Source of the DNA: a virus
IMG/VR virus record: IMGVR_UViG_3300006028_000011
Coordinates: 18,239-82,238 of that record
Length of the DNA stretch: 64,000 nucleotides
Strand: one strand, 5' to 3'
The translations under genes and the position numbers were made by a program. Below are positions 36,281 through 37,963 of the stretch, in pieces. The notes under the pieces are model-generated. The model was not told the origin of the DNA and did not search any database. It worked only from the letters and a program-made list of their open reading frames with translations. How positions within the stretch are numbered: the stretch's first letter is position 1; every line of letters starts with the position of its first letter.

Positions 36281-37963
36281 TCAGGCCACGGCATGGGGCA
36301 CACCCCTACCGTTAGCGCCTGACGGACCTGCCCGGCCCGGCTCCTCCAGTGGACGCTGGAGGACGTTTCGCGCCGAGTTGACCGTCCTCGGCGCGGTGTA
36401 ACCGCAGGCCGGGCAACGGTGAACGCGGAGCGATATGGGCTTTGGGACGAGCGTGCCGCACCGGGCGCATTCCTGCGTCGTGTGTGGTGCCGGCTTCCTC
36501 GCGACTCGACCACCAGCATCTGCCGCTTTGTAGTCGAGGGCGGCGAAGAACGCGCCCCAAGCTGCGTCGAGTTCCCCTCTGTTCCTCCTCCTCTGTACGT
36601 GTGCCGGAAGGTCCGGCTGTGGATCCGGGTTGTGCTCCGGAGCCACCGTCAACTGCTTGATGTCGAGCGCTTCGACGGAGATCTCCTCGAACTGGCGCAC
36701 CAGGGCCCGCGACACCTTGTGTCGGTGGTCCCCGCGGGCGCTGCGCTCGCGCTCCTTGGCGCGGGCGTACGCCTGCACCGCCTTCTTCCGGCGGTTGCTG
36801 TGGGCGTGGCCGGCCCTGGTCCGCCGGGCGACCCTGCGCTGCGTGCGCGCGACCCGCCTGGCGTGCCGCATGCCAGCATTGCTGCCCTCGATGAGCACGG
36901 CGGAGCCGGCCTCGTCAGGCACCGGCTCGGCGATGTCGTGGGCGGCCTGGAGGCGCCTGCGGATCCTCGCGCACGCCCTGTCGAGCTCTCCGAGTCGATG
37001 GAGGGACCGACGGTAGAGCTTGGTCAGCTCCTTCGGGCATCGGCGCGGCCGGGCTGGATCCAGGCCTCGCGCCCGGCAGTGCGCCAGCACCTCCGAGAGC
37101 TGCGCGGCCTCGCGTTCCAGCTCCTCCAGCCGCCGGCAGTCCGAGGGGTCGGTGGCCATCCGGCGCAGATCCGCGACGAGCGCCGCGGCCGCGCTGGTGT
37201 CAGCCGTGAAGGCCGTGCCCCAGGTGACCACGCCCATGTCCAGCCCGACTGCCGGACGGCCGCTGGCGGCTGGCTCGACGCTCGGCATCTCCATGGCGAT
37301 CGAGACGAACCAGCGCTTCCCGGACCGGCGCACGATGACGCTCTTCGGGATGGCGCCCATGGGGATGCGGCGGTGCTCGAGGATGCGCAGCTCGCCGAGC
37401 CCGGTGAGGCGGAGATCGCCGTTGTGGTACGTGCCAGCGCCGACGGTCTTGCCCCGGCCGAGCGATTCGCCGGTCTCGGGGTCGAAGCGCTCCTTCGACG
37501 GGCTGGTGAGGCCGAACGTCAGCGAGTCGTACCTGTGCTCGGAGCGCCAGCGCGGATACCCGGCCTTCTGACCCTTGGTCGCCCGCTGGAAGAACGCGGC
37601 CATGGACCGCTCGAGGCGCGCCAGGACCTCGTGCTGGACGAGAGCGGGCATGCCCGGCGGCAGGAGCTCGGCGTGCTCGCGGCGGAACTCCGTGAGCAGC
37701 TTGCCCTGGTCGTTCTTGGAGATGTGGGCGCCGCCGCCGCCGCGATAGACCCACCTGCCGGGCGGGTCGCTCTTTTTGCGGGGGGCGGCGTCGCCGTCCC
37801 AGAAGCGGAAGCCTCGGCCGTGCGCGTCATGGCGGCCCCACGCGTTCTTGCGGTGCTCGAGGGCCGCGTTGTAGAGCTGGCTCGCGAAGCGCAGCCAGCT
37901 CGTCAGGGCCTCGGCCTGCTCTGGCGTCGGGTAGGCGCGGTACTTGTACGTCCGAACCGTCAC
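36281..37963 (-). CDS. cas12: Compact type V CRISPR effector (TnpB-derived, Cas12f/Cas14-like), 560 aa
   Basis: RTYKYRAYPT..Q N-terminus, GYPRWR, RuvC-I VGLDMG (D242), RuvC-II SVEAL (E431), Zn ribbon CARC/CPAC, RuvC-III RTVNSARN; adjacent to the array and cas1-2-4. Confidence 0.9.
   Translation of the reverse strand: MTVRTYKYRAYPTPEQAEALTSWLRFASQLYNAALEHRKNAWGRHDAHGRGFRFWDGDAAPRKKSDPPGRWVYRGGGGAHISKNDQGKLLTEFRREHAELLPPGMPALVQHEVLARLERSMAAFFQRATKGQKAGYPRWRSEHRYDSLTFGLTSPSKERFDPETGESLGRGKTVGAGTYHNGDLRLTGLGELRILEHRRIPMGAIPKSVIVRRSGKRWFVSIAMEMPSVEPAASGRPAVGLDMGVVTWGTAFTADTSAAAALVADLRRMATDPSDCRRLEELEREAAQLSEVLAHCRARGLDPARPRRCPKELTKLYRRSLHRLGELDRACARIRRRLQAAHDIAEPVPDEAGSAVLIEGSNAGMRHARRVARTQRRVARRTRAGHAHSNRRKKAVQAYARAKERERSARGDHRHKVSRALVRQFEEISVEALDIKQLTVAPEHNPDPQPDLPAHVQRRRNRGELDAAWGAFFAALDYKAADAGGRVARKPAPHTTQECARCGTLVPKPISLRVHRCPACGYTAPRTVNSARNVLQRPLEEPGRAGPSGANGRGVPHAVA

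Follow-up and report, generated by a model that had tools for sequence, protein, structure and literature searches.

A temperate-phage CRISPR locus encoding a TnpB-derived effector with a conserved threonine at the RuvC-III catalytic position

Cas12m (type V-M, formerly V-U1; MmCas12m2 and GoCas12m) comprises compact, array-linked effectors of about 600 amino acids that combine a non-canonical RuvC triad with a full-length RuvC and zinc-finger fold. In the portions of the literature drawn on here, Cas12m proteins with altered triads interfere through DNA binding and silencing, with a pocket that holds one Mg ion together with the non-target strand, and their guide is a single crRNA. TldR and dCas12f are described as RNA-guided DNA binders derived from TnpB and Cas12f, with a disabled RuvC. 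Some TldR proteins are borne by temperate phages, some dCas12f genes adjoin CRISPR arrays, and most members of both groups use a single guide. According to the same partial accounts, either two or more residues of their triad are mutated or their C-terminus is cut short, with loss of the zinc finger and RuvC-III; the TldR census deliberately excluded single-site triad variants.

Cas12n (V-N, formerly V-U4) is an actinobacterial effector type close to TnpB. The published extracts describe a tracrRNA region that overlaps its effector ORF and a disordered C-terminal tail. Cas12n keeps an intact catalytic triad (D287, E386 and D484 in RdCas12n; PMC12216341) and cuts double-stranded DNA. Here, we describe an array-linked effector in which only the third triad residue is changed.

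Locus and predicted guide-RNA scaffold

The window, a stretch of 64,000 nucleotides, belongs to a complete 82-kb temperate phage from a rhizosphere (soil) metagenome. Its identity as a phage is marked by 90-bp terminal repeats, a tape measure protein, an endolysin and an integrase, and its host is probably an actinomycete. A single RuvC-type effector adjoins a CRISPR array, which is the generic hallmark of a type V CRISPR-Cas system, and the locus combines this array with three adaptation genes and a predicted, covarying tracrRNA-like anti-repeat at the effector stop codon. Its features are as follows.

37960..38622, minus strand: SAM-dependent methyltransferase gene, directly upstream of the effector (Methyltransf_11, 57.7 bits)
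36281..37963, minus strand: effector gene for a type V protein of 560 aa derived from TnpB, identical to the public gene call P0001
36264..36289, minus strand: candidate anti-repeat of a tracrRNA or omega-RNA-like scaffold, spanning the effector stop codon
36116..36280, minus strand: stretch separating the effector from the array, with DNA-level conservation in the related loci L003 and L004
34993..36115, minus strand: CRISPR array of 15 identical 37-nt repeats (35063-36115) and one degenerate repeat
33869..34870, minus strand: cas1 (Pfam Cas_Cas1, 220.7 bits; TIGR00287, 221 bits)
33550..33852, minus strand: cas2 (CRISPR_Cas2 match to residues 78-154 of a 177-aa open frame)
32972..33550, minus strand: cas4 (TIGR00372, 101.6 bits, cutoff 65)

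The effector begins with a GTG codon at 37963, which the methyltransferase stop codon appears to overlap, as judged from the ORF coordinates. The open frame is unbroken and extends up to 38113 (610 aa); the residue numbering used in an earlier, sequence-only reading of this DNA agrees with the GTG start. The protein matches the Pfam families HTH_OrfB_IS605, OrfB_IS605 and Cas12f1-like_TNB and the NCBIfam family guided_TnpB (171 bits), and it keeps the WED/REC core, the RuvC-I Asp, the RuvC-II Glu and the zinc ribbon, which apart from the RuvC-III carboxylate are all that RNA-guided recognition of DNA requires. Neither the effector nor any of nine relatives scored above cutoff with a curated Cas12 subtype model.

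The degenerate repeat (34993-35027) lies at the cas1 end of the array, and the spacers, 33-38 nt long, are all unique. The start of cas2 likely lies inside the 177-aa open frame. The sequence-only reading had proposed that the effector is still supplied with new spacers, and the locus agrees with this: the combination of 15 distinct spacers, uniform repeats and an intact cas1-cas2-cas4 set is the signature of ongoing acquisition. Searches with the spacers returned no significant match in the phage's own genome, in 50,697 phage records or in 72,556 plasmids (best E 0.3 for each of the latter two), and no protospacer in the related loci.

The predicted pairing partner of the anti-repeat is the final 21 nt of the repeat (36079-36099 in the first copy). 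In four sequences, from which the structure itself was derived, 85.8% of cells were paired, compared with 34-54% when the partners were slid, and 10 pairs had changed on both sides, compared with 2-4. A covarying hairpin lies at about 36206-36241, between effector and array. The intervening region may serve as the leader of the array or form the body of a scaffold RNA; Rfam returned no family match over 34700-36900.

Kinship of the effector

Ordinary TnpBs of about 380 aa are the nearest relatives of the effector, with scores of up to 292 bits against the profile of its clade, and its predicted fold is likewise closest to TnpB (TM 0.87 over the TnpB). Domain order and the zinc ribbon are shared with IS200/IS605 TnpB, and the predicted guide-RNA scaffold would, as in TnpB, overlap the gene at its 3' end. 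Unlike those genes, the effector gene lies between a CRISPR array and a methyltransferase gene and has no transposase gene beside it, and its protein carries about 150-180 extra residues in insertions and reads PRTxN in place of the typical DRDxN motif.

Among solved structures, RdCas12n (PDB 9j09) gave the best match (118.6 bits, E 2.9e-33), and the predicted anti-repeat at the stop codon would fit the layout of the Cas12n tracrRNA region. In contrast to Cas12n, the effector does not have an intact DED triad. Cas12n was rejected as its closest kin, and the lineage probably represents a separate capture of TnpB, since the RdCas12n match is weaker than the matches to ordinary TnpBs.

The sequence-only reading had drawn a parallel with Cas12m, Cas12k and TldR. 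This likeness holds as analogy and fails as kinship, the effector being closer to ordinary TnpB than to Cas12m. The clade profile scored 25.6-60.9 bits against Cas12m chains, in the C-terminal part only, versus 94-119 bits against TnpB and Cas12n chains, and the effector alone, used as query, did not find MmCas12m2 at E 0.01. Membership of Cas12m was therefore rejected from these profile and single-protein searches. The triads given for Cas12m in the published portions (HEK/HQK, HDD, NDD, DED/NED and DND) do not include D-E-T, and an anti-repeat is predicted here where Cas12m relies on its crRNA. Unlike TldR and dCas12f, the effector is changed only at the third triad residue, in a complete fold with an intact zinc ribbon, and it is accompanied by the 15-spacer array and cas1-cas2-cas4 rather than by a single guide.

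The RuvC-III position and its conservation

The residues of the active site and the zinc ribbon map as follows, with the codons of Asp242 and Glu431 placed by counting from the start at 37963.

37238..37240, minus strand: RuvC-I Asp242 codon, intact
36671..36673, minus strand: RuvC-II Glu431 codon, intact
36404..36469, minus strand: CCCC zinc ribbon of the TNB domain (C499, C502, C517 and C520)
36383..36385, minus strand: Thr527 codon ACG at the RuvC-III catalytic position, placed by alignment to TnpB and RdCas12n

On the minus strand, the codons TAC ACC GCG CCG AGG ACG GTC AAC TCG GCG CGA AAC encode Y T A P R T V N S A R N. A residue-by-residue count of phmmer alignments places Thr527 opposite D361 of ISDra2 TnpB (8bf8) and D484 of RdCas12n (9j09), E431 opposite TnpB E278, and D242 opposite RdCas12n D287. 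These TnpB and RdCas12n residues are named as belonging to the catalytic centre in PMC10097598 and PMC12216341. The motif PRTVNSARN, with threonine in place of the RuvC-III Asp, had been picked out in the sequence-only reading together with an intact D242, E431, zinc ribbon and reading frame, and each of these points was borne out by the alignments and the open frame. Across 230 aligned TnpB-type proteins, Asp occupies the RuvC-III column in 206, being the prevalent residue there outside the effector's own clade; the RuvC-I and RuvC-II columns are D in 226 and E in 227, respectively. The CxxC...CxxC cysteines are invariant in several alignments of relatives, one of them with 124 sequences.

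The effector falls in a clade of 10 tips (support 0.90), in which the RuvC-III residue is Thr in seven and Gln, Ala and Asp in one each; thus 8 of the 10 tips carry Thr or Gln. The homologue alignment that had been suggested as a check on the Asp-to-Thr change accordingly shows the change to be shared. Every one of the eight members with DET or DEQ retains D242 and E431. The Thr codon differs by locus (ACG in the window, ACA in L003 and ACC in L004), and the Asp codon of L002, the member that keeps this residue, is GAC; a change from Asp to Thr thus needs two base substitutions. The replacement of the RuvC-III carboxylate by threonine is a conserved trait of this lineage, more than chance.

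That the Thr stems from an error in sequencing or assembly, or from a recent mutation disabling a gene in decay, has practically no likelihood: an independently assembled contig (depth 13.2) shows zero differences over 36087-38000, Thr is kept under different codons in homologues of 38-59% identity, and the frame is unbroken. A private mutation and a sequencing error, both named in the sequence-only reading as outcomes that would count against its proposal, are thereby excluded.

The association with arrays recurs in L002, L003 and L004. Because the Asp-keeping L002 also adjoins its own CRISPR array, the change arose inside an already CRISPR-linked lineage. The arrays of L002 and L003 are short, neither locus has cas1 in the DNA examined, and in L003 a phage integrase adjoins the array. 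The neighbouring HTH proteins of the window and of L002 were compared and showed no homology.

The clade is very rare. A metagenome scan for related loci yielded four, with none in genome contigs and none in viral contigs. A profile search of a 5.8-billion-cluster collection returned no clade members beyond the six query proteins themselves, and cultured phages held no effector homologue above 31% identity. A repeat-pattern scan of genomes found one related array, in a Binatia MAG (L006/L008); a second candidate, L007, was rejected as a chance match in an unrelated cyanobacterial array. The D-E-T lineage was not found in the literature consulted, and the clade may be among the branches V-U6 to V-U45 of PMC10691335, which are described in its SI Appendix.

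Possible activities of the altered site

We consider binding of target DNA without cutting, as suggested in the sequence-only reading, to be the most likely mechanism, with about an even chance of being correct. The effector probably binds or silences rather than cuts because Thr replaces the cutting residue and is shared by rare relatives. In the published extracts, mutation of any DED residue abolishes cleavage by TnpB, and FnCas12a carrying the matching D1255A mutation loses plasmid clearance and represses genes, with partial cleavage and reduced trans-cleavage remaining in vitro.

In this account, the effector belongs to a phage-borne type V CRISPR-Cas system that would have arisen independently from an ordinary TnpB of the IS200/IS605 type. 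The array would be transcribed from the effector side, and the 3' repeat half of each crRNA would base-pair with the anti-repeat overlapping the effector stop codon, yielding a complex with the effector that finds matching DNA. With the third carboxylate gone, proper assembly of the two-metal site would presumably fail. The effector would then stay on its target without making double-strand breaks and obstruct the transcription or replication of rival elements. As in Cas12m2, the D-E-T pocket may accommodate a single metal together with the displaced strand; alternatively, it may act in RNA processing. Interference of this kind would spare the lysogen of a temperate phage.

The strict conservation of D242, E431 and Thr, with no drift, speaks for continuing selection on the pocket, which may still be catalytic. 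The hydroxyl of threonine can bind Mg. An altered but active site, in which D242, E431 and Thr527, perhaps with E406 or an acidic residue (D/E) at 451, support metal-dependent cleavage and destruction of targets, appears less likely. Such a variant might work more slowly, require Mn, nick a single strand or cut only ssDNA. The invariance of D and E and the retention of Thr through three synonymous codons speak for it, as does E406, which is Glu in all eight clade members and Val or Ile in TnpBs. However, the Asp-keeping member also has E406, so this residue was not gained to compensate for the change. In the loop that follows RuvC-II, position 451 is acidic in 7 of 8 members, but its alignment to L002 is ambiguous, and a relocated carboxylate may therefore lie there. 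No acidic residue occurs within six residues of Thr in any member, and the search for an acidic residue gained alongside the loss of Asp gave no unambiguous candidate. The literature points both ways: Altae-Tran et al. propose that conserved RuvC-III alterations may retain nuclease activity, the TldR authors warn, in the part of their paper used here, that catalytic residues may occupy alternate positions, and FnCas12a D1255A is only partly impaired in vitro, against which stands the published sensitivity of TnpB to any triad mutation.

A RuvC pocket retained for RNA work only (pre-crRNA or tracrRNA processing), or a TldR-like domesticated regulator of host or phage genes with no role in defence, appears improbable. 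Cas12c and Cas12j are described in the available extracts as processing pre-crRNA in the RuvC site, the phage carriage of TldRs offers a precedent, and the short arrays of L002 and L003 and the integrase beside that of L003 would fit. Against this, the window's array holds 15 different spacers between identical repeats beside an intact cas1-cas2-cas4, and none of its spacers matches the phage itself.

Returning to binding without cutting, we tentatively propose an adaptive, non-cutting phage CRISPR system, a reading that we hold with some reserve. Spacers would be acquired by the phage's own Cas1-Cas2-Cas4, and the D-E-T effector, guided by crRNA and an omega-RNA-like tracrRNA, would silence targets in a way that spares the lysogen. 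If true, such a system would silence rival phages, plasmids or host genes. The conserved Thr would then represent a new functional state of RuvC that evolved separately from that of Cas12m, with the Asp-keeping sister L002 showing the stage immediately before.

Three aspects of the locus are unusual: a single catalytic residue differs in an otherwise complete fold, the replacing residue is itself conserved, and a complete temperate phage carries the system together with its own spacer-acquisition genes. The Asp-keeping, array-linked member forms with the Thr-bearing ones a natural pair for the effect of one residue on a TnpB-type active site. Natural RNA-guided DNA binders (Cas12m, Cas12c, Cas12k, TldR and dCas12f) mark the turn from nuclease to regulator and provide compact tools. 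The lineage would add an independent case, with a complete fold and one catalytic residue changed, from the very class that the TldR census, as published, left out, and the 560-aa effector (460-481 aa in the shorter members of its clade) could serve as a small natural binder.

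The threonine at the RuvC-III catalytic position

The effector gene is a single open frame at 36281-38113 on the minus strand, for which the public gene call gives a GTG start at 37963 and a 560-aa product (P0001); the residue numbers of the sequence-only reading count from this GTG. That reading had threonine in place of the RuvC-III aspartate, with RuvC-I D242, RuvC-II E431 and the zinc ribbon retained in a continuous frame, and our analysis confirmed each point. The segment Y T A P R T V N S A R N is encoded at 36400-36365, with Thr527 specified by the ACG codon at 36385-36383. 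By residue count in phmmer alignments, Thr527 lies opposite ISDra2 TnpB D361 and RdCas12n D484, E431 opposite TnpB E278, and D242 opposite RdCas12n D287; the catalytic centres are as named in the available portions of PMC10097598 (ISDra2 TnpB) and PMC12216341 (RdCas12n). All four zinc-ribbon cysteines are invariant in the alignments.

A sequencing error is ruled out by a 4,834-nt contig (depth 13.2) that another pipeline assembled from a run on a rhizosphere metagenome. It matches 36087-38000 with no mismatches and no gaps, and may come from the same sample as the window. Two short records from a second study, of a soil metagenome, are exact over 36696-37001, a span that lies outside the Thr codon.

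The effector matches three TnpB/Cas12f modules in Pfam (HTH_OrfB_IS605, OrfB_IS605 and Cas12f1-like_TNB) and the generic guided_TnpB family in NCBIfam (171 bits). None of the NCBIfam Cas12 subtype models came near its cutoff; c2c8 scored 70.6 bits against a cutoff of 350. A profile of the effector's clade was also run against all solved chains.

Matches of the clade profile among solved chains
RdCas12n 9j09: E 2.9e-33, 118.6 bits
ISDra2 TnpB: E ~1e-26, 94 bits
UnCas12m4a: E 9.1e-16, 60.9 bits
Cas12m 23vw: E 5.4e-10, 41.8 bits
Cas12m2 8hhl: E 4.4e-05, 25.6 bits

We reject a Cas12m identity, as the Cas12m matches are weaker than those to TnpB and RdCas12n and confined to the C-terminal end, covering RuvC-II, the zinc finger and RuvC-III. 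Cas12n is likewise rejected as closer kin than plain TnpBs, which reach 292 bits. In an Atlas search the nearest clusters were actinobacterial TnpBs, whether judged on features (0.97) or on predicted structure (TM 0.87 over TnpB). Together with the solved-chain scores, this marks the effector as a 'typical' DRDxN TnpB with insertions.

A rare clade that retains the replacement

The effector family is very rare. Among 5.8 billion protein clusters, a word-indexed search detected just five close relatives (P0002-P0006; BLASTP identity 38-52%), and the next matches were ordinary TnpBs of ~370-420 aa. Three more proteins, P0086, P0087 and P0088 (586, 374 and 352 bits), came from an exhaustive profile search across 1.84 billion representatives, in which ordinary TnpBs followed at 292 bits or less; a second profile search, of the 5.8-billion-cluster collection, yielded no further clade members.

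In an alignment of 230 proteins, fragments included, the RuvC-III column holds Asp in 206, Thr in 7, Lys, Ala and Asn in 3 each, Gln in 2, a gap in 2 and singletons in the rest, while the D242 column is Asp in 226 and the E431 column Glu in 227. In a FastTree phylogeny built from 370 trimmed columns of this alignment and rooted at the midpoint, the effector falls within a ten-tip clade with support 0.90.

Residue at position 527 in the ten-tip clade
Thr (7): P0001, P0003, P0004, P0005, P0006, P0086, P0087
Gln (1): P0002
Ala (1): P0102, a 242-aa fragment
Asp (1): P0092, a 334-aa fragment

With threonine in seven of ten tips, a private mutation is also ruled out. The sister of the clade, P0088, has Ala at this position, and the next larger clade minus these 11 tips keeps the full DED triad in 13 of 14 proteins, P0177 being DEN. 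In other TnpB-type proteins outside the clade, the RuvC-III Asp is also replaced: P0124 (Gln), P0143 (Ala), P0154 and P0085 (both Lys), often with a Pro two residues before the changed site.

The threonine is encoded by ACG in the window, ACA in locus L003 and ACC in L004, and the aspartate of the related locus L002 by GAC, so that the replacement takes two base changes. Thr has since been kept through synonymous codon change, a pattern more in keeping with selection for this residue than with simple decay. A helical insertion of ~100 aa after RuvC-I (P0001 residues ~250-355, window ~36900-37215) occurs only in P0001, P0002 and P0003. Its absence from the shorter D-E-T members (460-481 aa) indicates that the Asp-to-Thr change came earlier. 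A helical RuvC insertion that touches target DNA is described in the available text on GoCas12m.

Array linkage and a candidate guide RNA

On the minus strand, the locus runs from a SAM methyltransferase through the effector, a 165-nt gap, the array and a degenerate repeat to cas1, cas2 and cas4. The stop codon of the SAM-dependent methyltransferase gene (Methyltransf_11, window 37960-38622, minus strand) overlaps the effector's GTG, which makes co-translation of the two genes probable. The array comprises 15 identical repeats and 15 unique spacers of 33-38 nt. It is read as transcribed from the effector side, since the cas1-proximal repeat is degenerate and in L002-L004, too, the array comes after the gene. 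The spacers gave no matches to their own phage, cultured phages, plasmids or the related loci.

A metagenome scan supplied four related loci (L002-L005). In L003, P0004 (D-E-T) is followed by a nine-repeat array whose last copies are degenerate and, directly after it, by a phage-type integrase gene (3486-4952); in L004, P0005 (D-E-T) is followed by an array truncated at the contig end. The 470-aa product of L002 retains DRD, shares 34% identity with P0001 (E 6e-75) and is of the same type as the P0092 fragment, here at full length. Downstream of its gene is an array of four repeats, and HTH proteins and DNA methylases are encoded in the vicinity. L005 holds a plain TnpB (385 aa, DRD) without an array. 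Because the Asp-keeping L002 effector adjoins an array, as do the D-E-T loci, array linkage predates loss of the aspartate. Among the loci compared, only the window has an adaptation module: cas1 was not seen in the 12.5 kb of L003 or in the L002 DNA examined, and with the L003 integrase this suggests that the shorter clade members are carried by integrating elements that lack adaptation genes.

A repeat-pattern genome scan also found a five-repeat array of the same type in a Candidatus Binatia MAG (contig CBDESS010000002.1; array at L006 124-449), just downstream of a 486-aa DED TnpB-like gene (L008 844-2304). Repeats of the window, the related array loci and this MAG are all 37 nt with both ends in common, yet the Binatia protein is only distant kin of the clade. 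The repeat type may be common to several TnpB-to-CRISPR captures.

Despite protein identities of only ~45%, the window, L003 and L004 share conserved DNA from the last effector codons to the first repeat. The stretch that would pair best with the repeat has the same position in three loci (the window, L003 and L002): it spans the stop codon, 165-174 nt upstream, and its energy advantage over shuffled repeats is just 0.4 to 2.9 standard deviations. From four loci, RNAalifold independently predicts pairing between this stretch and the final 21 nt (3' end) of the repeat, with a conserved local hairpin after it.

Regions with the predicted repeat pairing and hairpin
36079-36300, minus strand, window
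2490-2706, L003
3915-4134, L004
3795-4010, L002

In this structure 85.8% of cells are paired, against 34-54% with partners slid. Counted on the same four sequences from which the structure was derived, 10 of 36 pairs are changed on both sides, against 2-4 with partners slid, and none of 500 shuffles reaches the observed values; this covariation supports the pairing as well as the hairpin. The stop-codon-spanning stretch looks like a candidate tracrRNA or split omega-RNA overlapping the ORF end, a predicted layout like that of Cas12n, whose tracrRNA is described in the available text of PMC12216341 as overlapping the end of the effector ORF. Rfam gave no family match to the effector-array region (34700-36900).

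Mode of action and phage context

In the portions of published work available, mutation of any DED residue abolishes TnpB cleavage. The same-site FnCas12a mutant D1255A is described there as only partly disrupted for cleavage in vitro, with trans-cleavage lowered but not lost; in cells it loses plasmid clearance and represses genes. Binding and silencing are described for Cas12m proteins whose triads are altered, and even for those with DED; the Cas12m2 pocket retains one Mg and holds the non-target strand. By analogy with this behaviour, the most likely reading, which we hold at about an even chance, is that the effector would bind DNA and interfere without double-strand breaks; the sequence-only reading had raised a possibly nuclease-dead RNA-guided repressor.

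An altered but active nuclease is possible, if distinctly less probable. D242, E431, R526, N529 and likewise the Thr stay constant throughout the clade, which argues that the RuvC pocket is still in use. An acidic residue also occupies position 451, within the loop that follows RuvC-II, in seven of eight D-E-T or D-E-Q members (the L002 alignment there is uncertain). The acidic-residue search also found E406 and D265 to be clade-specific, but both occur in the Asp-keeping member too and so are not tied to the Asp change. RNA-only or regulatory roles take up the likelihood that these two readings leave.

The binding effector proposed here is carried by a virus whose complete IMG/VR record spans 82,238 bases (72% G+C, 90-bp direct terminal repeats, CheckV completeness 100%); the window corresponds to bases 18239-82238 of it.

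Genes listed for the whole record (G000)
3875-5614 and 8372-9682, two DNA methyltransferases
6605-8281, integrase
47196-48662, endolysin
52628-55849, tape measure protein

Tape measure protein, endolysin and integrase identify a temperate tailed phage. Its DNA is present in a rhizosphere metagenome, the only cultured phages that resemble it at the nucleotide level are two 82-kb Streptomyces phages, over a short shared stretch, and the host is probably an actinomycete. Among cultured phages, no protein closely related to the effector was found.

Published accounts already describe a good number of type V effectors and TnpB derivatives whose RuvC site is naturally impaired (Cas12k, Cas12m, Cas12c, TldR, dCas12f). 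The D-E-T lineage was not found in the literature searched, though supplementary material of published surveys may include it, and the TldR census, as described in its available text, excluded by design the single-replacement, complete-fold class seen here. What sets this case apart is an independent TnpB-proximal lineage with a complete fold and a single conserved replacement, an Asp-keeping, array-linked sister, and an adaptation module encoded by the phage. Single-site RuvC-III variants may be a recurrent, little-studied class.
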